Shown: positions 22,765 through 63,867, numbered from the stretch's first letter. The stretch is 64,000 nt of DNA from a virus (IMGVR_UViG_3300043446_003158:113188-177187); one strand, 5' to 3'. The notes: generated from the letters alone by a model not told the origin. Translations and numbers: made by a program.

Positions 22765-23007
22765 TTACCAGTCTGGATATTCTATAAAATCTGATATAAT
22801 TTCTTTTTTGGGGCATATTAATCTAGATTTTTTTATTCTTTGTATCGTACATTCTTTACATTCATAAGAATATGATGATGGTAAAGATCCTCTGTCTCTG
22901 TATGATAAATAAAAATCGTCCAATAAATTTTTTATTTGACCACAAGATCTACATTTTCGTTCCAAAAATAAAAGATGTTCTAAATCTACTTGATCATCTA
23001 AATCCAT
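22765..23007 (-). CDS. Small zinc-ribbon protein (CxxC...CxxC)
   Basis: CRSC and CKEC; lies between terminase and sheath genes. Confidence 0.65.
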   Translation of the reverse strand: MDLDDQVDLEHLLFLERKCRSCGQIKNLLDDFYLSYRDRGSLPSSYSYECKECTIQRIKKSRLICPKKEIISDFIEYPDW

Positions 23008-24681
23008 TTAAATATAATCCCACATATAACTTCTATCACCATATTCGTCAAAATGCCAAGTATCACCATCACTATCTGTAAATGATGGTCCAGATTCTAA
23101 TCCCGTAGATATAAAACCAAAAGGAGACATATCTGCTTCTATTTGTTCTTCTTGTTCTTCATATATTCTTTTACGAATATCATCATTTGTCATTTCTTTG
23201 AAATATGGTTGTGCAACTAACCAAGCAAAGATAACTAAACACATCATTAAATCATCATTACAACCTTCTTCTGCCATAAAAGTATTACTTTTTTGAATAA
23301 AGGTTGTCATCTCACTAATAATATCATAATCATTAGTTAATAACTTATCATCTTCTATAAGAGTTCTTAAATTAGAACAACCTAGCTTTTTAACTGCAGC
23401 AGTCATTCTAATTCCAAGATAGGATTTTTTACCACTAAATCCTGTTCCTACTATTTGTCCTGCTCTACCTCTTTGAGAGCACATTAAAATGTTATCATAC
23501 TCCAAATCATAGTGTAATATATTTGCTATTTGATCTCCAATATCATTAATCTCAACTAAAATCCAAGCATGATTGTATGCCTTTGCCAAAGGTTCTATGA
23601 CGCTTGGGAAAAGCATGGGCTTTATTTCATTATTTCTATATTTTGCAACTACTTTATATGGAAAAGAAGTTATGTCTACAACAACAAATGCAGAGTAATC
23701 ATTTCCTATTCCTCTTGCAACATCAACTGTAATCATATAATTGTGTCCATCTATTGGATCTTCGTAAACATCCAATCCTTTATGTTTTTTTATTGGATCT
23801 TCATATACTAAATTTCTTAATTTAGAAGGATTGATTAAAGTATCAACGGATCCTAAAAATTCACATTCAAACTCAACTTTAAATTGCTGTTCAGAAGTGT
23901 TTGCAATTGTAGATGCTTTCCATTTTTCGTCTCTTCCAGGAACTTCGGACCAGTGAACATCAGTTGGTACATATTCATTTTTACCTCTTTCAGAATCATG
24001 CCACTTTCTGTAAAAATGATTCATTCCACGTGGGGTGGAAACGATGATTACTTTTGTTGATGTTCCAGATGAAATAGTCGGATAAGTTGATGCGAAAAAA
24101 TCATCTGCAATATGGTTTGGGATAAACGCAAATTCGTCCAAAAATATAATGTTATATGATCCACCACGAACTGCAGATGCAGATGTTGATGCTGCGATGA
24201 TTTTAGATCCATTCTCTAACTCCAGAGAACCTCTATTCCACTGCAAAACCCCTTGTTGCATCCATTTGGGTAAATTCTCATAAGCGAGTTGTAGGCGCTG
24301 TAAAAGATCTCTGGCAGTTGATGCTTTGTTTGCCAAGATTGCAATATTTACATTATCATTAAAAACAGCATAATGTAAAAGATATGAAACGCACGTTGTA
24401 GATTTTCCCGTTTGACGGGGCATCTTACAAATATTAAATCTGTGCTTATGGAAATTATTAATTAATTTTTCTTGAAATGGGTATAGATCAAATGGGACTA
24501 AACCATGATCAAGAGAAACAATCTTAATGTAATTTTTTGCAAAATAAACAGGGTCTTCTTTACACTTAAAAAATTCTATAATTTGCTCTTGTGTCCATGA
24601 AAATGATGTATTTGCCCTTTTTAAATTTGGATTTGATAAGTAAGCATCAGATTGCTTAAGTTGAATATCTTGAATTGTCAT
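23008..24681 (-). CDS. gp17: Terminase large subunit gp17
   Basis: PRQTGKST Walker A, FLDEFAF Walker B, STPRG and DVARG nuclease motif. Confidence 0.97.
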   Translation of the reverse strand: MTIQDIQLKQSDAYLSNPNLKRANTSFSWTQEQIIEFFKCKEDPVYFAKNYIKIVSLDHGLVPFDLYPFQEKLINNFHKHRFNICKMPRQTGKSTTCVSYLLHYAVFNDNVNIAILANKASTARDLLQRLQLAYENLPKWMQQGVLQWNRGSLELENGSKIIAASTSASAVRGGSYNIIFLDEFAFIPNHIADDFFASTYPTISSGTSTKVIIVSTPRGMNHFYRKWHDSERGKNEYVPTDVHWSEVPGRDEKWKASTIANTSEQQFKVEFECEFLGSVDTLINPSKLRNLVYEDPIKKHKGLDVYEDPIDGHNYMITVDVARGIGNDYSAFVVVDITSFPYKVVAKYRNNEIKPMLFPSVIEPLAKAYNHAWILVEINDIGDQIANILHYDLEYDNILMCSQRGRAGQIVGTGFSGKKSYLGIRMTAAVKKLGCSNLRTLIEDDKLLTNDYDIISEMTTFIQKSNTFMAEEGCNDDLMMCLVIFAWLVAQPYFKEMTNDDIRKRIYEEQEEQIEADMSPFGFISTGLESGPSFTDSDGDTWHFDEYGDRSYMWDYI

Positions 24682-56049: not shown

Positions 56050-56220
56050 TTAATCTCCTACTATTTCAGTTTGTATTTCAGAAGGGTTTGGAGAACCTGT
56101 CTTATAATACTGGAAGGACAGATCCTCCAAGATTTGAAAAAATTCATCCTCTGATAAATTAGTGTAAATTTTACGTCCTCTACAGAGAATATTGTATTTT
56201 TCGCCAGATTTGTTAGACAT
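56050..56220 (-). CDS. Hypothetical protein
   Basis: MSNKSGEKYNILCRGRKIY...; start coupled to the stop of the upstream gene. Confidence 0.6.
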   Translation of the reverse strand: MSNKSGEKYNILCRGRKIYTNLSEDEFFQILEDLSFQYYKTGSPNPSEIQTEIVGD

Positions 56221-56981
56221 CAAATAACTCTTGTTTTTTCGTGACCGACTCGTACACGTGGATCGCACCAAATTTCAAAGCCTGCTTCCTTTGCATCCAA
56301 ACAGAAACTGACATCTTCTCCACACATGTCTTGAACATCACCAGATTCAAAAACTTGCATCTTTGGAGCAAACCAAGGATATTTCATATCCGAATGCTCA
56401 AATACACCGTGCTTAATCAGCAACCAACCAAATCCAGTATAATCAACTGTAAATGGTTTGCGGCGCTTGGAGATTGTTTCAAGAGTTTCATGATTCATAA
56501 CTCCACCATTACTGCGGAAATCTTCTTCATCTAACCAGTGTGCAACGGAAGTAGTCATGCCGTCTTCGGTACAATACCAACCTGCTGCAATATCTTTATC
56601 CATCAAAACCAATTGTAAAAACTTTTCAGTGTTGAATACAATATCAGAGTCAATCCAAAGTTGATAATCATAATTAAGTTTTCCGTCCCAAGGAAGTTGA
56701 TCAGGTCCACGAAGAACGTTTGCCCCCAAACACTTACAGCGGGCAAAATTTACCATGGAACTGTAATCTTGAGAAATTTGAATACTTGCCCCGTTCTGCA
56801 CGAGGTCGAAGCACATTTGAATAAAACTCTTTAGAAATGTATACGAACAACCTCTTCCAGGTAAGCAAAAAACGATTGATTTTCCACGAATCATTTCTTT
56901 TGCTTTTTCAAAATCAAACTCTGGATCGGCTGAACTTGTGGCAACTGGTGCCTTTGCTTTTACGGTAAATCCTTTAGCCAT
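56220..56981 (-). CDS. GT-A fold glycosyltransferase-like protein
   Basis: ARCKCL, YDYQLWIDSDIVF (DxD), TGFGWLLIK, GEDVSFC, GHEK. Confidence 0.75.
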   Translation of the reverse strand: MAKGFTVKAKAPVATSSADPEFDFEKAKEMIRGKSIVFCLPGRGCSYTFLKSFIQMCFDLVQNGASIQISQDYSSMVNFARCKCLGANVLRGPDQLPWDGKLNYDYQLWIDSDIVFNTEKFLQLVLMDKDIAAGWYCTEDGMTTSVAHWLDEEDFRSNGGVMNHETLETISKRRKPFTVDYTGFGWLLIKHGVFEHSDMKYPWFAPKMQVFESGDVQDMCGEDVSFCLDAKEAGFEIWCDPRVRVGHEKTRVI

Positions 56982-57203: not shown

Positions 57204-57423
57204 TCCATTCTTGTTTTGTATTTTGTTTTATATAGTATATTTTGAAATTATAATCGACCTGTGGGGCGAATTTTTATGGGGGAAATTTTTTTAGGTTCAG
57301 AGAATTATAAGTCTCATTTGGGTAACACTTTATAGATTGAGGGATCCATCGTTTTTATAAACCACGCGCCCCGCCATCACGATACCGTTATACCATAATA
57401 CTGTGATTTTGCACGAACGAACA

Positions 57424-57444
57424 GGGGGGCGTGTGCCGCCCCCC
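57424..57444 (-). terminator. GC-rich stem-loop closing the early array
   Basis: GGGGGGCG-TGTGC-CGCCCCCC, 6 nt after the stop of the last array ORF. Confidence 0.6.
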
Positions 57445-57450
57445 GAACTG

Positions 57451-57642
57451 TCACTGCACGTCGCCCAGGGCGCTGTTCGTGGTGCTCATGCGGGTGCCGC
57501 GTGAACCAGCAGCGCCGCCATGGGTGCGAACGCGGGTGCTGCCGCCCTTGATCTGATTTGCCCAGCGGTTGGCACGGGTGCCATGGGCAACGGGCAGGCG
57601 GGTGATCGTGAACTGGATGCCGTCGATGGTGGTGGTGGTCAT
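57451..57642 (-). CDS. Array ORF1, basic 63-aa protein
   Basis: Has its own promoter module directly upstream; TGA stop. Confidence 0.7.
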   Translation of the reverse strand: MTTTTIDGIQFTITRLPVAHGTRANRWANQIKGGSTRVRTHGGAAGSRGTRMSTTNSALGDVQ

Positions 57643-57710
57643 CGGGTGTGGTGCGGTTTGCTCTGGAATTCTACAGGGTCAGGGGGCAGGGGTCAACCCA
57701 CCCCCTGTAG
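57643..57710 (-). promoter_or_regulatory. Promoter-stem-loop module P1 (type A)
   Basis: TTGACC (57691-57696)-17-TAGAAT (57668-57673); G/C inverted repeat around the -35; leader TCCAGAGCAAACCGCACCACACCCG-ATG. Confidence 0.85.
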
Positions 57711-57712
57711 GA

Positions 57713-57973
57713 TCAGATGCCTGCCATCGCGGCAACCAGGCGATCACGCTTGCGGATCGCGGTGGGCACGATGAACCAGAGGTCACGCTTGCCGCTGTCG
57801 GAGCGGGTGGCATCCAGGGTGCCGCCCTTCTCCATGTCAACCATGAGGGCGTGGATGGTGCCCTTATGGCGGCGGGGGTCCATGCCCATGGCGCGAACCA
57901 GGTCGCTGCAGGTCATCGGGCCGTCGTTGATCAGGCGGGTGCGGATCGCGGTGCGGATGATGGAGGTCAGCAT
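57713..57973 (-). CDS. Array ORF2, winged-helix-like protein (86 aa)
   Basis: Start reassigned to 57973 from the module geometry; GPMTCSDLVRAMG...TIHALMVDMEKGGTL...DLWF resembles a wHTH. Confidence 0.65.
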   Translation of the reverse strand: MLTSIIRTAIRTRLINDGPMTCSDLVRAMGMDPRRHKGTIHALMVDMEKGGTLDATRSDSGKRDLWFIVPTAIRKRDRLVAAMAGI

Positions 57974-58036
57974 CGGGTGCGTTGCGGTTTGCTCTGGAAT
58001 TCTACAGGGTGGGCGGGGCACCCGTCAAGGTGCCCC
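57974..58036 (-). promoter_or_regulatory. Module P2 (type A)
   Basis: TTGACG (58023-58028)-18-TAGAAT (57999-58004); the -35 is in the loop of GGGGCAC/GTGCCCC. Confidence 0.85.
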
Positions 58037-58043
58037 ATAGGGG

Positions 58044-58268
58044 TCAGTACCCCAACCAGGAGAGGAACTCACCGCAGTCGATGCGCTCACCCTGCAGGTG
58101 CCCGTACTCCTTGCGGAAGTCGTAGAGGCAGGAGTGCATCTCTGCAGACTCCAGGGCGATGTGCCAGGCGATGGTGTCGTCGGCGGGGTGAGAGCAATCC
58201 CACAGAATGTCGGAGAAGGTGGTGCCAGGGGCGTACACGTTGAGGCAGTCGCGGAGGGCGGTGGTCAT
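58044..58268 (-). CDS. Array ORF3, 74-aa hypothetical protein
   Basis: ATG follows the module leader; TGA stop. Confidence 0.7.
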   Translation of the reverse strand: MTTALRDCLNVYAPGTTFSDILWDCSHPADDTIAWHIALESAEMHSCLYDFRKEYGHLQGERIDCGEFLSWLGY

Positions 58269-58327
58269 CGGGTGCGATGCGTTTGCTCTGGAATTCTACA
58301 GGATGGGGGGTCGTTTGCCAACCCCCC
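58269..58327 (-). promoter_or_regulatory. Module P3 (type A)
   Basis: TTGGCA (58316-58321)-17-TAGAAT (58293-58298); G6/C6 stem with the -35 in the loop. Confidence 0.8.
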
Positions 58328-58334
58328 TGGGGGG

Positions 58335-58553
58335 TCAGATCTGCTCTGCCATCTGCTGCTCCATCTGCTCACGGATCATGGCACGGATGGCGAAGGCGCT
58401 CTCACGGATGCTGCGGCAGGAGTCGGCACTCAGGTCATTCTCACCAGCGCGGGCGGCCTCCTCATTCTCAAACCAGCGGATGCCTGCGTCGATCAGGGCA
58501 TGGCAGATCTCATCAGCGATGGCAGGGGTCACGGTCAGGGTGAGGGTGGTCAT
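58335..58553 (-). CDS. Array ORF4, 72-aa helical protein
   Basis: MTTLTLTVTPAIADEICHAL...; start set from the module geometry. Confidence 0.7.
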   Translation of the reverse strand: MTTLTLTVTPAIADEICHALIDAGIRWFENEEAARAGENDLSADSCRSIRESAFAIRAMIREQMEQQMAEQI

Positions 58554-58613
58554 CGGGTGTGGTGCGGTTTGCTTGAGAATTCTACAGGATGAAGGGGAGG
58601 GGGTCAACCCCTC
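58554..58613 (-). promoter_or_regulatory. Module P4 (type A)
   Basis: TTGACC (58602-58607)-17-TAGAAT (58579-58584); GAGGGG/CCCCTC stem. Confidence 0.85.
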
Positions 58614-58809
58614 ACACCCGCGTCACGGTCAGGCGCTTCCATCCTTCGATGCGGTAGTAGCGGATCTCCTCCAGGATGGAGTTGACCACGTTGTTGTGCT
58701 GGCGGTCAAACCCCTTGGGCGTGGTGGGACGGCGGCGGCGGCGGTACTCTACGGCAGTAGTGCCATCGGCACGGTCCAGTTCGATGCGGTAGAGGCAGGT
58801 GCTGGTCAT
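58612..58809 (-). CDS. Array ORF5, 65-aa Arg-rich protein
   Basis: MTSTCLYRIELDRADGTTAVEYRRRRRPTT...; start set from the module geometry. Confidence 0.7.
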   Translation of the reverse strand: MTSTCLYRIELDRADGTTAVEYRRRRRPTTPKGFDRQHNNVVNSILEEIRYYRIEGWKRLTVTRV

Positions 58810-58870
58810 CGGGTCCGTTGCGGTTTGCTCTGGAATTCTACAGGGTCGGCGGTGGGAGGTCAACCCTCCC
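58810..58870 (-). promoter_or_regulatory. Module P5 (type A)
   Basis: TTGACC (58858-58863)-17-TAGAAT (58835-58840); GGGAGG/CCTCCC stem. Confidence 0.85.
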
Positions 58871-59039
58871 AGGTCACCACGTCGGCGGCGTAGTGTTCGG
58901 CATACCGTGCTGCCCACCAGTACCCCTCAGCAGGGTTGATCTGTCCAGCGAAGCGATCCTGGGGGGCATCGTCAGTCTTACGGGTCACCCACATGGTTTC
59001 GCGGGTCTGCAGGTCGGAGCACTGGGAGAAGATTGCCAT
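58860..59039 (-). CDS. Array ORF6, 59-aa protein (not in the ORF track)
   Basis: Hand translation MAIFSQCSDLQTRETMWVTRKTDDAPQDRFAGQINPAEGYWWAARYAEHYAADVVTWEG; its TGA lies inside the -35 of P5. Confidence 0.7.
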   Translation of the reverse strand: MAIFSQCSDLQTRETMWVTRKTDDAPQDRFAGQINPAEGYWWAARYAEHYAADVVTWEG

Positions 59040-59075
59040 GGGTGCGGTTGCGGTTGCTTGGGTAGTGTAGCAGGT
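59040..59075 (-). promoter_or_regulatory. Module P6 (type B, extended -10)
   Basis: TGC-TACACT (59064-59069); leader ACCCAAGCAACCGCAACCGCACCC-ATG. Confidence 0.7.
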
Positions 59076-59245
59076 CAGCGGCGCTCACCGCACCAGGCGG
59101 GGTCGGCGGTGCAGAGGGCGTCTGCCATGCGCTCCTGGTGAGCGTCAACGGTTGCCGCGGCCTTCAGGGTCCAGGCACCTGCCACGATGCTCACAGAGCA
59201 GAAGAGCATGGCAGCGATGGCATTGTGGAGAGTGCGGTCGGTCAT
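59075..59245 (-). CDS. Array ORF7, 56-aa membrane-anchored protein with a C-terminal Cys pair
   Basis: Hand translation MTDRTLHNAIAAMLFCSVSIVAGAWTLKAAATVDAHQERMADALCTADPAWCGERR. Confidence 0.7.
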   Translation of the reverse strand: MTDRTLHNAIAAMLFCSVSIVAGAWTLKAAATVDAHQERMADALCTADPAWCGERR

Positions 59246-59280
59246 GGTGGGGTTGCGGTTGCTTGGGTAGTGTAGCAGGT
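59246..59280 (-). promoter_or_regulatory. Module P7 (type B)
   Basis: Shares GGTTGCGGTTGCTTGGGTAGTGTAGCAGGTCAG with P6; TACACT at 59269-59274. Confidence 0.7.
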
Positions 59281-59465
59281 CAGAAGCGAACTGCCCAGTT
59301 CGGGTCGGTCAGGCAGTTGATCCAGGCGCACCAGTTGCCGTTGGTGCTCACGCAGAACAGGTCATTGCCCTGGCGCTGCTCAACCACCACCACGGGGTCG
59401 CCTGCCATCTGGTTTGCCAGGCGGTTCTTTGCCTTGGCGGAGATGGGGGTCAGGGTCACGGTCAT
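59280..59465 (-). CDS. Array ORF8, 61-aa hypothetical protein
   Basis: In the ORF track; ATG follows module P8. Confidence 0.7.
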   Translation of the reverse strand: MTVTLTPISAKAKNRLANQMAGDPVVVVEQRQGNDLFCVSTNGNWCAWINCLTDPNWAVRF

Positions 59466-59524
59466 CGGTCGGTTGCGGTTGAGAGAATTCTAGTCTATGG
59501 ATGGGGAGGGGGTCAACCCTCCCC
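59466..59524 (-). promoter_or_regulatory. Module P8 (type A)
   Basis: TTGACC (59511-59516)-18-TAGAAT (59487-59492); the -35 is exactly the loop of GGGGAGGG/CCCTCCCC. Confidence 0.85.
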
Positions 59525-59531
59525 GTAGGGG

Positions 59532-59696
59532 TCACCAGAGCAGGTCAGCGATTGCTTCCAGGCGCTGCTGGCGGGATGCCAGTTCCTTGAGGATTGCCCG
59601 CTGCTCCTTGGCGGTGGGGTTTCCTTCCCACAACCACTCCTCCAGTTGAAAGGAGGTCAGGTCGTCAAAGGCGGTGGCGATGGTTCCGTCCAGCAT
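59532..59696 (-). CDS. Array ORF9, 54-aa protein
   Basis: MLDGTIATAFDDLTSFQLEEWLWEG...; start set from the module geometry. Confidence 0.7.
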   Translation of the reverse strand: MLDGTIATAFDDLTSFQLEEWLWEGNPTAKEQRAILKELASRQQRLEAIADLLW

Positions 59697-59758
59697 GGGG
59701 TCGGTTGCGGTTTGCTCTGGAATTCTACAGGGTGAAGGGGAGGGCGTCAACCCTCCCC
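59697..59758 (-). promoter_or_regulatory. Module P9 (type A)
   Basis: TTGACG (59745-59750)-17-TAGAAT (59722-59727); the -35 is exactly the loop of GGGGAGGG/CCCTCCCC. Confidence 0.85.
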
Positions 59759-59765
59759 ATAGGGG

Positions 59766-59990
59766 TCAAACGGCAACCCAGTAGGATTTGCCGTTGCTCT
59801 CCTGCTGCTCTGCCATGATGTAGTCGGCGCTGCCATAGGCGCTGCGCCATCCCTGGACCTGGTAGTAGCAGTCCTCCAGGGTGGTGGCGTAGGCAAGGGT
59901 GCGGGCGATCTTACCGCCCTTCACGAACGCCACCGCGAACGGGTAGCGGGTGGGGGAGAGGATCGTCTGCAGGGGGGTGGGGTCGGTCAT
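59766..59990 (-). CDS. Array ORF10, 74-aa protein
   Basis: MTDPTPLQTILSPTRYPFAVAF...; start set from the module geometry. Confidence 0.7.
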   Translation of the reverse strand: MTDPTPLQTILSPTRYPFAVAFVKGGKIARTLAYATTLEDCYYQVQGWRSAYGSADYIMAEQQESNGKSYWVAV

Positions 59991-60068
59991 CGGTTCGGGT
60001 GGTGAACTTCGATCAGTATAGCAGGTCAGGAGGCAAAGGGGAGGGGGTGTGCCCCTCCGCTGTGCCAC
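59991..60068 (-). promoter_or_regulatory. Module P10 (type C)
   Basis: TGC-TATACT (60015-60020) followed by GATC; GGAGGGG/CCCCTCC stem; TGTGCCAC motif at 60061. Confidence 0.7.
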
Positions 60069-60090
60069 CTAGCGGGTGGGCGCAGCGTGA

Positions 60091-60240
60091 TCAGAAGTCG
60101 ATGGCATCAAGTGTAGGGTCTGCGCCATACTCATCACATTCGTCAACACTATCCCCCAGAACAAGAGTGTCAAGAATTTGCAGGATTTGTTCGCCGTTGT
60201 TACCAGAGCGGAGGAGAGAAAGCGCAAGGTCGCGGGTCAT
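60091..60240 (-). CDS. Array ORF11, 49-aa acidic protein
   Basis: Hand translation MTRDLALSLLRSGNNGEQILQILDTLVLGDSVDECDEYGADPTLDAIDF. Confidence 0.65.
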   Translation of the reverse strand: MTRDLALSLLRSGNNGEQILQILDTLVLGDSVDECDEYGADPTLDAIDF

Positions 60241-60298
60241 CGTAGAGTTTGCAATTGGGTGTAATTGGGTGTCTTTATGGGCGCACCCGTTCCCTGTA

Positions 60299-60460
60299 TC
60301 ATCGCTCTAGTTGTGCCAGCGATGAGGGGGCGATGTGAGAAGGCGAACCGCAGGAGCGGTAGAACTCTACCATGCGATCTGCCTCCTCCTTGGTTGTGAA
60401 CCACTGGGAGCGCCACTCACACTGGTTGTAGGGGGTCTGATAGCGAACTTCGAAGCGCAT
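60299..60460 (-). CDS. Array ORF12, 53-aa protein
   Basis: Hand translation MRFEVRYQTPYNQCEWRSQWFTTKEEADRMVEFYRSCGSPSHIAPSSLAQLER. Confidence 0.7.
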   Translation of the reverse strand: MRFEVRYQTPYNQCEWRSQWFTTKEEADRMVEFYRSCGSPSHIAPSSLAQLER

Positions 60461-60517
60461 GGGGTTGGTTGCGAACTTGATCAGTGTAGCATGGCGGAGG
60501 GGGTGCTGGGCACCCCC
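60461..60517 (-). promoter_or_regulatory. Module P12 (type C)
   Basis: TGC-TACACT (60483-60488)-GATC; GGGGGTGC/GCACCCCC stem at the -35 position. Confidence 0.75.
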
Positions 60518-60524
60518 GTGAGAT

Positions 60525-60791
60525 TCAGAAGTCGAACACGTCGCCGTTGATCTCTGCTCGGTTGATCTCTGGATCGTTCCACATCACACCGTCAGGGGTT
60601 TGAGTGCTGCCGTGATCATAGAACGCTTCCAGCAGTTCTTCATAGCAGCAAACGTCATTCTGCTGAATGAAGTCTTGGATGCTTTCGTCATTCTCAATCC
60701 ACAGAACAACGTTCCAGGTTTTGTAGTTTGTCCACCCGTTGTAGGTAACATCCAGCAGGTTGGTCTGGTGAGTGCGGGTTGCGGTTGCCAT
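60525..60791 (-). CDS. Array ORF13, 88-aa acidic protein with YNGWTNY.TWNV.LW motif
   Basis: In the ORF track; ATG follows module P13. Confidence 0.75.
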   Translation of the reverse strand: MATATRTHQTNLLDVTYNGWTNYKTWNVVLWIENDESIQDFIQQNDVCCYEELLEAFYDHGSTQTPDGVMWNDPEINRAEINGDVFDF

Positions 60792-60857
60792 GGGGTTGGT
60801 TGCGAACTTGATCAGTGTAGCACGGGAAGGGGGGCAGGAGCGCCCCCCAGGGCGCTC
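60792..60857 (-). promoter_or_regulatory. Module P13 (type C)
   Basis: First 33 nt upstream of the ATG are identical to P12; TACACT at 60814-60819; alternative stems G6/C6 and GAGCGCCC/GGGCGCTC. Confidence 0.75.
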
Positions 60858-61032
60858 AGATGGCGCTGGTGCCCTTGCTCACCCACAGTGCCAGGCGCAT
60901 GGTGCCTGCCTTGCTCACCTGCTGGGCGGTGCGCCCCTGGGCGATGGCAGCAGTCTTCAGGGAGTTGCGGTGAGCATCGGCACCGCACACCATCACGTCA
61001 CGTGCTTGCTGGAGGAGTTGCTGCTGGGTCAT
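60856..61032 (-). CDS. Array ORF14, 58-aa protein
   Basis: Hand translation MTQQQLLQQARDVMVCGADAHRNSLKTAAIAQGRTAQQVSKAGTMRLALWVSKGTSAI. Confidence 0.7.
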   Translation of the reverse strand: MTQQQLLQQARDVMVCGADAHRNSLKTAAIAQGRTAQQVSKAGTMRLALWVSKGTSAI

Positions 61033-61095
61033 GGTTGGTTCAGGTGTTGAACGTGTTCAGTATAGCATGGGGGTGGGGCACCCACACGGTGCCCC
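61033..61095 (-). promoter_or_regulatory. Module P14 (type C)
   Basis: TGC-TATACT (61059-61064); GGGGCAC/GTGCCCC stem whose loop lies 17 nt from the -10. Confidence 0.75.
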
Positions 61096-61102
61096 TGGGA
61101 GA

Positions 61103-61276
61103 TCAGGCAGTGATCTCCATCCACTCCTGCTCGTCGCGGTAGATCACCACGGGAGCACCACCGAGTTCGATGCTCCAGTCGAAGGCAACGTCCACGGCGT
61201 GCTCTTCGCTGGTGAAGAACTCTGCGTGATCCATGCCAGTGCCCTTGGGGGCGGCGCTCCAGGAAACGAAGGTCAT
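61103..61276 (-). CDS. Array ORF15, 57-aa acidic protein
   Basis: Hand translation MTFVSWSAAPKGTGMDHAEFFTSEEHAVDVAFDWSIELGGAPVVIYRDEQEWMEITA. Confidence 0.7.
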   Translation of the reverse strand: MTFVSWSAAPKGTGMDHAEFFTSEEHAVDVAFDWSIELGGAPVVIYRDEQEWMEITA

Positions 61277-61335
61277 CGGGTTCGGGCGTTGAACTTGATC
61301 AGTGTAGCACGGAAAGGGGGGCGTTGGTGCCCCCC
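61277..61335 (-). promoter_or_regulatory. Module P15 (type C)
   Basis: TGC-TACACT (61301-61306)-GATC; GGGGGGC/GCCCCCC stem. Confidence 0.75.
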
Positions 61336-61342
61336 GTAGGGT

Positions 61343-61567
61343 TCACACGGTGGCAGGCACCTGGGTGAGTTGATCGCCACGAATAGCGAGGTTGATGAAC
61401 TTACCCACGGAGTCTTCGTTTTCGATCACCAGGTTGAGATCGGCAACGAAACCAGCAGGATCAGTCACGTTGTAGGTGTAGTCACGCCCACCGTTGAAAG
61501 TAACAGTCACTTGACCGTTCTGCACCTCGGAGATGTTTTCGATGGCGCTGGATTGAAACTTGAACAT
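61343..61567 (-). CDS. Array ORF16, KTSC-domain-like protein (74 aa)
   Basis: FQSSAIENI...VTVTFNGGRDYTYNV...SVGKFIN..IR follows the KTSC pattern SS.I......L.V.F..G..Y.Y..V...S.G.F.N..I(K/R). Confidence 0.6.
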   Translation of the reverse strand: MFKFQSSAIENISEVQNGQVTVTFNGGRDYTYNVTDPAGFVADLNLVIENEDSVGKFINLAIRGDQLTQVPATV

Positions 61568-61637
61568 AATTAAGAAAAAAAGTAAAGGGTTGAGTGAAGT
61601 GTTTTGAGCGGGATGCTTCACCCCCGCTGATGTGATC

Positions 61638-61694
61638 AGTATGGCACGGATTGGGGGTGGGGTCAACCCCCTTGTGCCACTTGTCAGACTGTCA
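61638..61694 (-). promoter_or_regulatory. Module P16 with upstream pseudo-palindrome
   Basis: TTGACC (61661-61666)-17-CATACT (61638-61643)-GATC; GGGG/CCCC stem around TCAA; TGTGCCACTTGTCAGACTGTCA at 61673-61694. Confidence 0.7.
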
Positions 61695-61884
61695 CATCAG
61701 GAAGTGTAGAGAGCGTGGTGATACGGTTCAACTCATTTAGTGTGTCCACATTCCAGTTGTTTGTATCACCATAAGGAGGATACAGTTTGCTATACCATTC
61801 CCCATACAGTTCGGGGTTGATGTGTTGAACTTGCTCTAAAGTTTCAGCAATCTTAACAAGCATGGGGTGTTGATTAGTCATCAT
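61684..61884 (-). CDS. Array ORF17, 66-aa protein
   Basis: In the ORF track; ATGA overlap with the upstream ORF. Confidence 0.65.
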   Translation of the reverse strand: MMTNQHPMLVKIAETLEQVQHINPELYGEWYSKLYPPYGDTNNWNVDTLNELNRITTLSTLPDVTV

Positions 61885-62054
61885 TCCTCCAACAGTTCGG
61901 GGTAGTATTCTTCACACTCAGTGATCAATTCTTCGTCACTGTATTTGGCGTAACCTTCGTCCAGGTAGTCATAACATAGTTGAGTCATTGTCTTGAGATC
62001 CATGTCATCCAGCATCTGCTGAATGAGAGCATCTTGGAGTGCAGAACGGTTCAT
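61881..62054 (-). CDS. Array ORF18, 57-aa acidic helical protein
   Basis: Hand translation MNRSALQDALIQQMLDDMDLKTMTQLCYDYLDEGYAKYSDEELITECEEYYPELLEE (16 D/E, 3 K/R). Confidence 0.7.
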   Translation of the reverse strand: MNRSALQDALIQQMLDDMDLKTMTQLCYDYLDEGYAKYSDEELITECEEYYPELLEE

Positions 62055-62056
62055 GA

Positions 62057-62236
62057 TCAGAAACGAATGATAGGGTGGTCAAGATCGAGGACATCACATT
62101 CCTCGGTGGCAAACACTAACTCTACACCGTGTTGCCATACATCATCGGGTTCATCTTCAGAGCAAATGGCAACATCCTGGTTGAGTTGTTCTTCGGTGAG
62201 TTGTTGCAGTTGTTGCAGGAGTTCTTTGTAAGTCAT
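62057..62236 (-). CDS. Array ORF19, 59-aa acidic protein
   Basis: MTYKELLQQLQQLTEEQLNQDV... (15 D/E, 2 K/R); ATGA overlap with the upstream ORF. Confidence 0.7.
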   Translation of the reverse strand: MTYKELLQQLQQLTEEQLNQDVAICSEDEPDDVWQHGVELVFATEECDVLDLDHPIIRF

Positions 62237-62439
62237 GTCAGAACGTGGCGAAAGTCCAGGGATTTGATGCACCAACCAGTGGCACATGTGATCTCTTCAA
62301 CTAGATCGTCCTCATCATCTGCCTCCCAAATTGTACCTAGAACCTCATCGTAGATTTCATCTTGAGATTCAACATCAAGTGCCTCATCATCAAGATCATC
62401 AGTGAAATCAAACTCAATTTCAGTAACTTGGAATTGCAT
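62233..62439 (-). CDS. Array ORF20, 68-aa very acidic protein
   Basis: 23 D/E versus 2 K/R; WEADDEDDLVEEITCATGWCI. Confidence 0.75.
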   Translation of the reverse strand: MQFQVTEIEFDFTDDLDDEALDVESQDEIYDEVLGTIWEADDEDDLVEEITCATGWCIKSLDFRHVLT

Positions 62440-62585
62440 CAGACCTCATCACGCATTTCAGTGAGTTTGTCATACAGAAGCGGAATGTCCGCCTCTGTAA
62501 GTTCAGTCAGGTAGTGCCAATCGCTACTCTCAAGAATAGCGAGCAGGGCATCAATTTCCTGATAGTTGAGGTGTGTGAGTGTCAC
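62439..62585 (-). CDS. Array ORF21, 48-aa acidic protein (GTG start)
   Basis: Hand translation MTLTHLNYQEIDALLAILESSDWHYLTELTEADIPLLYDKLTEMRDEV; GTGA overlap with the upstream ORF. Confidence 0.65.
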   Translation of the reverse strand: MTLTHLNYQEIDALLAILESSDWHYLTELTEADIPLLYDKLTEMRDEV

Positions 62586-62710
62586 TTGCGTAGAGGAGAA
62601 TTGTAGTAGCGGCGGAAAGCAGTGAGAACGATAATGCCCGTCGAAACAACACCAACCAAACCAAGGAAGGTGACAGCATCGCCAGAGAATGTGTAGGTAT
62701 CAGGTGTCAT
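62582..62710 (-). CDS. Array ORF22, 42-aa single-pass membrane protein
   Basis: Hand translation MTPDTYTFSGDAVTFLGLVGVVSTGIIVLTAFRRYYNSPLRK. Confidence 0.7.
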   Translation of the reverse strand: MTPDTYTFSGDAVTFLGLVGVVSTGIIVLTAFRRYYNSPLRK

Positions 62711-62838
62711 CAGTAGTCGTAGTTGGAGTTCAGAAACTGGTTGAAGGTTTGCTCATCGGTGTCATCTTCCTCGTAAAGATCTTCCATGTCGAAGATCTCA
62801 CCAGGAGCATCTTGGATCTCAAAGAAGTAGGTGTCCAT
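62710..62838 (-). CDS. Array ORF23, 42-aa acidic peptide
   Basis: Hand translation MDTYFFEIQDAPGEIFDMEDLYEEDDTDEQTFNQFLNSNYDY (14 D/E, no K/R). Confidence 0.7.
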   Translation of the reverse strand: MDTYFFEIQDAPGEIFDMEDLYEEDDTDEQTFNQFLNSNYDY

Positions 62839-62861
62839 GGAGGTGTTTCAGGAACAAACGT

Positions 62862-62919
62862 AGTTTGGCATGGGTGAGGGGGGTTCACAACCCCCCGTGT
62901 GCCACTTGCTCAACTGTCC
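62862..62919 (-). promoter_or_regulatory. Module P23 with upstream pseudo-palindrome
   Basis: TTGTGA (62885-62890)-17-CAAACT (62862-62867); -35 in the loop of a G6/C6 stem; TGTGCCACTTGCTCAACTGTCC at 62898-62919. Confidence 0.6.
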
Positions 62920-63242
62920 AGGGCACCCTGCTCGTTGAGCACACCCCAGGCGATGCCAGAGTTGTACAAACCGATGTAACGGTTCTTGATGCTCAACCCA
63001 ACGATTTCATCGCCAGGTTCACCAATCATGTTCACACCGAAGTAGAAGTATTCGGTGAGGAATTGAGGCGTTTGGAACTTCATGGTTTGGAACTTCTCCC
63101 AGAGAAGAGTAGCAATCACGGCAACGATTGCCGCAACAGTGAGAACAAAACTCCGCACATCTTGGTAGAGTTTCTGATAGTCAACCTCTGCCAGAAAGGC
63201 AATCAGGTCATCAGTGGGGGGGAAGGATTTGGTGAGGTTCAT
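62910..63242 (-). CDS. Array ORF24, 110-aa protein with one predicted TM helix
   Basis: Hydrophobic stretch FVLTVAAIVAVIATLLW. Confidence 0.7.
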   Translation of the reverse strand: MNLTKSFPPTDDLIAFLAEVDYQKLYQDVRSFVLTVAAIVAVIATLLWEKFQTMKFQTPQFLTEYFYFGVNMIGEPGDEIVGLSIKNRYIGLYNSGIAWGVLNEQGALDS

Positions 63243-63295
63243 GTCAAGAATTGTGGGGTTGGGGGAATGTAGAGAGGTGTCCCAACCACGAGATC

Positions 63296-63324
63296 AGTAT
63301 GGCACACCAGGGGCACCACCGCAA
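63296..63324 (-). promoter_or_regulatory. Promoter P24
   Basis: TTGCGG (63319-63324)-17-CATACT (63296-63301)-GATC. Confidence 0.5.
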
Positions 63325-63393
63325 GGGGTTGAAACATTCCGTAACATCAGGGCATCTTATCAGACTCATCAGGTATTCTAATGTGCCAGGGGC

Positions 63394-63445: not shown

Positions 63446-63712
63446 TAATATAAGTCTTTATAATATACTTTAAAGAGATGCCGAAGGCATACCCCGAAGG
63501 GGTATGAGTTGATATACTATAAGCACGTCAGATGGTGTGGGAAGGGGTGAGTGGGGTGAAGCACGATTCTTGCACTATATTATAAGAATTGATTTTGTTG
63601 CAAAGAAAAAAGGCAGGGTCACCACTCCCTGCCTTCAGATCTCCACTCACCTATGTGTAAAAATATATCCACCTCGTGCATGTATGGGTGGCGATTGTCT
63701 CAAACCACCCAA

Positions 63713-63797
63713 TAGGAGTAGGGAGACTTGAACTCCCACGGGCGTTATGCCCAACAGATTTTAAGTCTGGTGTGTCTACCGATTCCACCATACTCCC
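63713..63797 (-). tRNA. trnL: tRNA-Leu, anticodon UAA (CCA not encoded)
   Basis: GGGAGTATGGTGGAATCGGTAGACACACCAGAC-TTAAAA-TCTGTTGGGCATAACGCCCGTGGGAGTTCAAGTCTCCCTACTCCTA: cloverleaf with long variable arm, TTC T-loop and A discriminator. Confidence 0.95.
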
Positions 63798-63806
63798 ATG
63801 TTGTAT

Positions 63807-63867
63807 AGTATATGATACATTATGTGTGATGTCAAGTGCTTGACAATCTCGTAATGTATGATATACT
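63807..63867. promoter_or_regulatory. Back-to-back divergent sigma70 promoters
   Basis: Minus: TTGACA (63830-63835)-17-TATACT (63807-63812), driving the tRNA. Plus: TTGACA (63840-63845)-16-TGn-TATACT (63862-63867). Confidence 0.75.

Follow-up and report, generated by a model that had tools for sequence, protein, structure and literature searches.

A GC-rich array of mini-genes and repeated promoter-hairpin modules in a T4-like cyanomyovirus: a probable PeSL-type cassette region

Why does a phage genome poor in guanine and cytosine (GC) keep a GC-rich block of 24 very small genes, and why do variants of one promoter-like hairpin recur between so many of them? The question is raised by the last 64 kb of a linear IMG/VR viral contig (IMGVR_UViG_3300043446_003158, positions 113188-177187), a stretch of 64,000 nucleotides called the window below. 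The contig is 177,187 bp long, about 90% complete and of the T4-like cyanomyovirus type, with genes for portal, scaffold, sheath, neck, terminase, gp6 and UvsW. T4-like core genes are present within the window, and structural genes are 76-81% identical to those of the Synechococcus myoviruses S-SRM01, S-SKS1 and DSL-LC02. The array is probably a hyperplastic early-gene region of this phage, built from cassettes of the promoter-early-stem-loop (PeSL) type. PeSLs are units of a stem-loop and a sigma70-like early promoter in the hyperplastic regions of RB49/phi1, T4/PST and KVP40/nt-1, and recombination between them leads to insertions and deletions, swaps and mini-circles (Arbiol et al. 2010, PMC2839356; Comeau et al. 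2014, PMC4122927).

An earlier note on this DNA had reported 24 minus-strand open reading frames (ORFs) of 42-110 amino acids and about 17 promoter-hairpin modules. All 24 ORFs were found, between window positions 57451 and 63242, and 17 intergenic modules of 35-115 bp were counted, in three related types. Two ORF starts were reset, to 59993 and 58809, and seven entries of the mechanical ORF list reach upstream of the likely ATG. The array is laid out as follows, in window positions and in the direction of transcription.

63243-63330, minus strand: module ahead of gene 1 (family D11), with the extended -10 TGCCATACT and a long leader
61684-63242, minus strand: genes 1-8, 45-50% GC
59994-61683, minus strand: genes 9-14 with type-B modules
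61568-61683, 61277-61342, 61033-61102, 60792-60855, 60461-60524 and 59994-60090, minus strand: type-B modules
57643-59993, minus strand: genes 15-23, with the module of gene 24 at the low end, 62-63% GC
59697-59765, 59466-59531, 58810-58876, 58554-58620, 58269-58334, 57974-58043 and 57643-57712, minus strand: type-A modules
59246-59279 and 59040-59074, minus strand: type-C modules
57713-57973, minus strand: gene 23, 86 amino acids, winged-helix AlphaFold model (predicted local distance difference test score, pLDDT, 85)
57451-57642, minus strand: gene 24, the last cassette, 63 amino acids, isoelectric point (pI) 12
57414-57444, minus strand: predicted end-of-array terminator, 8-bp all-GC stem and T-rich tail, z = -3.3

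The modules follow one order: stop codon, hairpin (missing from type C), sigma70-type -10 box, C/A-rich leader without a Shine-Dalgarno sequence, and ATG. Type A (n = 7; genes 16, 17 and 20-24) has a G-run/C-run hairpin with the -35 hexamer as its loop (TTGACN, in one case TTGGCA). After the hairpin come a 17-18 nt spacer, TAGAAT, a conserved C/A-rich leader and the ATG. Type B/B' (n = 8; genes 1, 2, 9-13 and 15) combines a hairpin with an extended -10, either TGnTAYACT or TGCCATACT, and a GTTCA-type leader; in the stretch of genes 9-15 its GC hairpin is 7-8 bp long and begins about 7 nt past the stop. In type C (n = 2; genes 18 and 19) the extended -10 comes right after the stop. By sequence, small ORFs are directly preceded by sigma70-like promoters seven times in type-A form and ten times with an extended -10. 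A single spacer, between genes 13 and 14 (60241-60298), is without a module. The element of the gene 1 module was also seen in three related loci (L003-L005). A plus-strand core (repeat family D2), given at six places in the earlier note, was recovered at all of them by a repeat finder (57656, 57987, 58281, 58567, 58823 and 59710). The earlier picture of single-gene cassettes stands from gene 9 on, where nearly every gene has its module, but does not apply to the first eight genes. Genes 2-8 overlap or abut (ATGA/GTGA junctions) and form one operon, inside which gene 2 alone has its own module, a weak one (62839-62909).

This repetition exceeds chance, since a scan found 25 promoter-like sites in the array compared with 4.4 ± 2.4 in shuffled sequence. 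With strict regular expressions, no complete module was found outside the array in the 177-kb genome. The type-A expression (TTG[AG]C, 18-19 nt, TAGAAT) gave three isolated promoter-like matches there (genome positions 92766, 124447 and 176581), all without hairpin and conserved leader; the type-B expression gave one match and the type-C expression none.

Most modules (14 of 17) fold into a GC stem of 7-11 bp with -17 to -24 kcal/mol, mostly beginning about 7 nt past the stop, and the leaders that follow the hairpins are predicted to be open. Native pairs of arms are more stable than swapped arms (-17.2 vs -14.6 kcal/mol, p = 2e-7). By analogy with the RB49 stem-loops, which terminated transcription in reporter assays (PMC2839356), the hairpin may act as a terminator or RNA stabiliser.

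Sequence conservation extends to both edges of the modules. All 24 genes stop at TGA, as do 91% of array ORFs across all loci compared with 48% of ORFs elsewhere; directly after the start codon, ACC stands in 177 of 592 array ORFs. The stop codon lies within the -35 box in 33 ORFs (all loci), and that of gene 19 sits within a TTGACC box. A motif resembling a Shine-Dalgarno sequence was seen in just one of the 24 leaders. As a side observation, the TGA is usually followed by C/T and CC, which resembles a TTGACC -35 box. Some relatives have half-modules that lack the 5' hairpin arm, where an ORF runs into the -35 box and ends there.

The strongest feature of the array, not stressed in the earlier note, is that it forms a GC island in an AT-rich genome. 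The genome has 34.2% GC; the array climbs from 47% to 63% and is followed by an abrupt drop to about 35-38%. GC content at third codon positions (GC3) is 0.22 in long ORFs elsewhere and up to 0.89 in the array. Since GC content is raised at first and second positions too, more than codon choice is involved. Eleven phage transfer RNAs (tRNAs; genome positions 83755-102305 and 176899-176985) all match A/U-ending codons, ten with U at the wobble position and the eleventh being Asn-GTT. Codons cognate to them make up 7.5-8.7% of the array, its lower-GC first part included, compared with 22.7% of long ORFs elsewhere. Judged by its codons, the array fits an immediate-early compartment whose translation would draw on the tRNAs of a GC-rich host.

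Are such short ORFs genes at all? GC3 peaks in a frame-specific way, at 0.65-0.89 for most of genes 9-24, and the ratio of nonsynonymous to synonymous substitutions (dN/dS) is 0.08-0.68 in 20 of the 21 families tested with orthologues from related contigs. Because of these two signals, the mini-ORFs are most likely real genes under purifying selection. Searches of Pfam and PHROGs assigned no function to any cassette. Gene 12 matches DUF7249 and phrog_871, gene 9 phrog_4357 and gene 7 DUF7326; genes 6 and 7 match PHROG/Pfam families of unknown function, and five more genes besides 12 and 7 have matches among PHROGs of unknown function. For the gene 22 family, the only relatives found are close metagenomic ones.

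The next question is whether the cassettes move. A scan of IMG/VR for the type-A core gave 53 loci, of which one was a chance match without an island (L016) and three pairs shared a contig. In about 50 contigs from about 48 samples, the island lies at the same place, on one strand, with 58-66% GC, and AT-rich DNA follows abruptly. A second scan, with a 17-mer of the type-b -10 and leader, gave at least 120 loci; among the 105 new loci listed, 66 had a GC island beside AT-rich DNA. Matches of a 15-mer scan were mostly due to chance, S-PM2 (L228) excepted, and were not used.

The earlier note had predicted that cassette order and content would vary among relatives, with breakpoints inside the modules. 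ORFs were called in all loci and clustered, and the cassette orders were written out. Both order and content vary, with at least 30 different terminal arrangements among the approximately 50 related contigs. Ten of these were seen in two to three independent metagenomes each, a recurrence that speaks against assembly chimeras. Upstream of the gene 22 family, 12 different neighbours were counted, and upstream of the gene 19 family 10. The gene 16 family stands before or after the gene 19 family, the position of gene 20 varies, and so does the terminal gene (families w21, f14, f23, f60, f67 and f72). One sample holds different arrangements side by side (L015, L044).

Breakpoints were concentrated in the modules, as predicted. 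When homology blocks of at least 150 nt were compared against the window, 203 of 230 block ends, or 88 of 104 distinct positions, fell in module zones, which cover 35% of the array. These elements were the site of insertions, deletions, replacements and displacements alike. The junctions are chimeric, combining parts of neighbouring modules. Two loci with flanks that are 98% identical (L029 and L019) differ by one cassette, and at the junction the hairpin of the upstream gene is combined with a promoter of type B in one locus and of type A in the other. The gene 19 family ends in a coding 5' arm for which at least four different 3' partner arms were found, which places crossovers in the -35 loop; one joint of an RB49 mini-circle was likewise mapped to the loop (PMC2839356). 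The exchange points as a whole are spread over the loop with its -35 hexamer, the spacer, the leader and the first codons, without a single site. In one lineage (L004/L017), TATAAT replaces TAGAAT in nine of ten type-A modules, a pattern that, within this single lineage, indicates an apparently concerted change.

Many of the contigs end in or at the edge of the array (L004, L007, L008, L010, L029 and others), as would be expected if repeats and strain variation break assemblies there.

A DNA match led from the window to the cultured marine phage S-PM2 (AJ630128.1), region 22.0-25.1 kb. The likeness is close: a hairpin with TTGACG in its loop, a 17-nt spacer, TATACT, a C/A-rich leader and ATGACC, in a region of 50-60% GC compared with about 38%. 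The order of tRNA-Leu(TAA), array and gp25/gp6 is the same, and at least eight ORFs belong to cassette families of the freshwater loci, with 42-89% amino-acid identity. The S-PM2 array differs in being shorter (about nine modules), in having a leader variant of the TCAGTTCAAAC type, and in coming from a marine phage, unlike the freshwater loci studied here. In DSL-LC02, S-RIM32 and S-CREM1, single cassette homologues were found, with no module array or island at those places.

The accessible literature holds no description of the S-PM2 region as a cassette system, and the region is partly annotated. Puxty et al. 2015 (PMC4503421) sought PeSLs in another region of S-PM2 and found few, and in a review of transcription in cyanomyoviruses, sigma70-like motifs ahead of homologues of early genes are all that is mentioned. 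Between 21900 and 25300, several cassette ORFs are absent from the S-PM2 record (L074) or wrongly placed in it. The record lacks annotations for three plus-strand ORFs (22955-23215, 23263-23466 and 23503-23718), has p074 on the opposite strand where the DUF7249 homologue lies (23789-24058), and lists p240, with which an ORF at 24102-24299 (GC3 0.77) competes.

How could such an array work? Each small gene would be expressed from its own promoter by the unmodified sigma70-type RNA polymerase of the host, and the promoters presumably fire immediately after infection. Translation would start from the unstructured C/A-rich leader without a Shine-Dalgarno sequence, using codons that match the tRNA pool of a GC-rich host and not the phage's own tRNAs. 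The G-run/C-run hairpin over the -35 may insulate or stabilise the upstream transcript. Because the modules share sequence from the stop context (TGA and CC) to the first codons (ATG ACC), homologous recombination by UvsX could cross over between them; a UvsX/RecA homologue is present in the genome. Such crossovers would delete, insert, swap or reorder cassettes while every gene stays expressed. The products would presumably be effectors of host takeover or anti-defence.

Several observations weigh against a PeSL-type cassette region. On average, the module halves are only weakly linked to their flanking genes (0.69 vs 0.62 and 0.77 vs 0.73). Selection against broken genes would enrich breakpoints at gene borders as well, whatever the mechanism. 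The window genome and all its close relatives are metagenome assemblies, in which repeats could cause some chimeras. The hairpins, except for the last, have no U-tract and are thus not canonical intrinsic terminators. Covariation of the stems is modest (0.214 vs 0.144 in shuffles), and their register is poorly defined because the arms are homopolymeric. Finally, sense and antisense strands fold equally well, which fits a function at the RNA or the DNA level alike.

The first two of these points also speak for an ordinary early region, in which promoters are conserved as promoters, generic illegitimate recombination acts together with selection for intact genes, and modules are not preferred substrates. 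Selection by itself would place breakpoints at gene borders, the linkage test gave a weak signal on average, and the leaders are so uniform that crossover points cannot be finely placed. However, the junctions contain no foreign filler, and the hybrid modules consist of recognisable halves of other modules. The same -10 base has changed in nine of ten modules of one lineage, and the shared sequence exceeds the needs of a promoter, reaching into the stop context (TGA) and the second codon (ACC). We therefore consider an ordinary early region unlikely.

An integron-like, site-specific system was also considered, in which a dedicated recombinase would recognise the hairpins, as with attC, and move the cassettes. 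The layout does recall an integron: single small genes follow one another in one direction, with imperfect repeats between them that can form hairpins and that vary in sequence and keep their shape, and with order and content differing between relatives. The enzyme, however, is missing. The tyrosine integrase profile PF00589 had no match in the 177-kb contig (about 90% complete), with positive controls, and the contig has no credible resolvase, the best match being 17.5 bits, below the cut-off, with an internal stop. In addition, the array has no attC R/L boxes, and its exchange points are spread over the module and do not fall on one site. Of its 24 genes, 16 have a promoter-like module of their own, unlike integron cassettes, which are promoterless under one common promoter. 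The integron reading, very improbable on these grounds, was rejected for want of a tyrosine recombinase or credible resolvase in the contig. The resolvase-like fragment itself (G000:C1:93221-93379) lies outside the window, has an internal TAA and is probably a chance match or a gene remnant.

Modules of host origin were looked for with the type-A core, as one degenerate 21-mer, in 185,579 prokaryote species genomes (one each). There were 14 scattered single matches and none in cyanobacteria. As far as this test goes, a host origin of the modules was rejected; since the matches are few, scattered and not cyanobacterial, the type-A element looks like a phage element and not a host repeat, judging by this one degenerate 21-mer.

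Scarcely credible, and the least probable of the alternatives, is a GC block of recent foreign origin (host or GC-rich phage), or one made by chimeric assembly, with the shuffling an assembly artefact at repeats: the compositional jump is extreme and the close relatives are all metagenome contigs, many ending inside the array, but the island keeps its place across the related contigs and in cultured S-PM2, ten arrangements recur in independent assemblies, the 21-mer has no cyanobacterial match (a comparison of this 21-mer, not of cassette genes or GC content), and exact repeats in the array reach at most about 45 bp. The k-mers of current assemblers are commonly longer than this.

A region of PeSL-type cassettes thus remains the reading we prefer. 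A wider proposal, which we put forward tentatively and think rather less likely than not to hold in all its parts, is that the array is a compositionally separate "host-mimic" compartment of interchangeable immediate-early genes, whose 60-65% GC and sparing use of codons read by phage tRNAs would allow host tRNAs to translate them before phage tRNAs exist. Its high GC content, at first and second codon positions as well, might be kept by the intense recombination itself, through GC-biased conversion, or by selection, the -35 hairpin unit might be a bifunctional terminator/promoter, and the compartment might be common to marine and freshwater cyanomyoviruses that draw on one cassette pool.

Some cassettes deserve separate mention. 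According to the structure predictions, gene 23 is the sole cassette with a recognisable fold, a winged helix. In Foldseek its model matched MarR/ArsR and Z-alpha winged helices, with a best E-value of 1.3e-3 and a template modelling (TM) score of up to 0.68; in a sequence-profile search with the gene 23 family, no relative of solved structure turned up. Its product was considered as an obligatory reader of the modules. This was rejected because gene 23, present in just 16 arrays, is missing from many complete ones.

The products of genes 1-8 are mostly very acidic (pI about 4.1), and the region has partial DNA matches to the phages DSL-LC02 and S-SZBM1. More broadly, the products of genes 2 and 4-10 (window 61103-62838) are 42-74 amino acids long, rich in Asp/Glu and have a pI of about 4.1-4.5. 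This composition recalls DNA-mimic anti-restriction proteins, to which no homology was found.

The array is preceded by a tRNA gene with its own signals.

63835-63807, minus strand: near-consensus promoter ahead of the tRNA-Leu gene (promoter scan)
63712-63798, minus strand: tRNA-Leu (anticodon TAA), just upstream of the array
63636-63609, minus strand: terminator-like hairpin after the tRNA-Leu gene

Two near-consensus promoters stand back to back at window 63807-63867. The plus-strand one faces the contig end, and the minus-strand one is predicted to drive the tRNA-Leu gene and the array. Just downstream of the array lies a 253-amino-acid ORF (window 56220-56981) without a Pfam match, in a region with 77-88% DNA identity across related contigs.

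Descriptions of shuffling mediated by PeSLs have until now come from enterobacterial and vibrio phages, and the same logic appears to operate here in cyanomyoviruses. The cyanomyovirus form is sharper: the GC island is host-like, conserved and fixed in its genome position, and it is present in the model phage S-PM2 as well as in well over 100 viral contigs. S-PM2 on Synechococcus WH7803 thereby offers a defined, experimentally reachable locus. This locus bears on how large lytic phages trade small early genes, on the roles of ORFans in host takeover and anti-defence, and on why an AT-rich phage keeps a GC-rich compartment. It also matters for annotation: many cassette genes are below ORF cut-offs, and several are missing from the S-PM2 record or placed on the wrong strand.

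Known systems resemble the array to different degrees. The SPO1 host-takeover module and the immediate-early regions of T4 are comparable clusters of small early genes of unknown function behind repeated strong host-type promoters; neither is known as a compositional island. The accessible literature contains no description of PeSLs for cyanophages, or of this array. Compared with the PeSLs of RB49 and its relatives, the array has no AT-rich, UP-like tract upstream of the -35 and no Shine-Dalgarno sequence, which belong to the RB49/PST layout. The place of the tract is taken by the hairpin, whose stem overlaps the -35 and is centred on it with the hexamer in the loop; in PeSLs it lies upstream of the AT-rich tract. 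The array also has three module types, including extended -10 forms without a -35, and as a whole it is a 60-65% GC island in a 34% GC genome, with few of the codons that the tRNAs of the phage read. For RB49, reporter fusions and inverse polymerase chain reaction demonstrated active promoters and terminators and mini-circles that arise by recombination between adjacent units (PMC2839356). Against these differences stand the shared features. Both are found in T4-like genomes with a hyperplastic region of small ORFans, here with 17 copies of the unit in 5.9 kb. Both combine a stable G-run/C-run stem-loop with a sigma70-like promoter, between an upstream stop codon and a downstream ATG. Indels, swaps and displacements between relatives sit at the units in both. 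For RB49, crossovers were mapped to the loop or its vicinity, and the chimeric loops point the same way here. The comparison with PeSLs drawn in the earlier note thus holds for the architecture of the array and for its behaviour among relatives.

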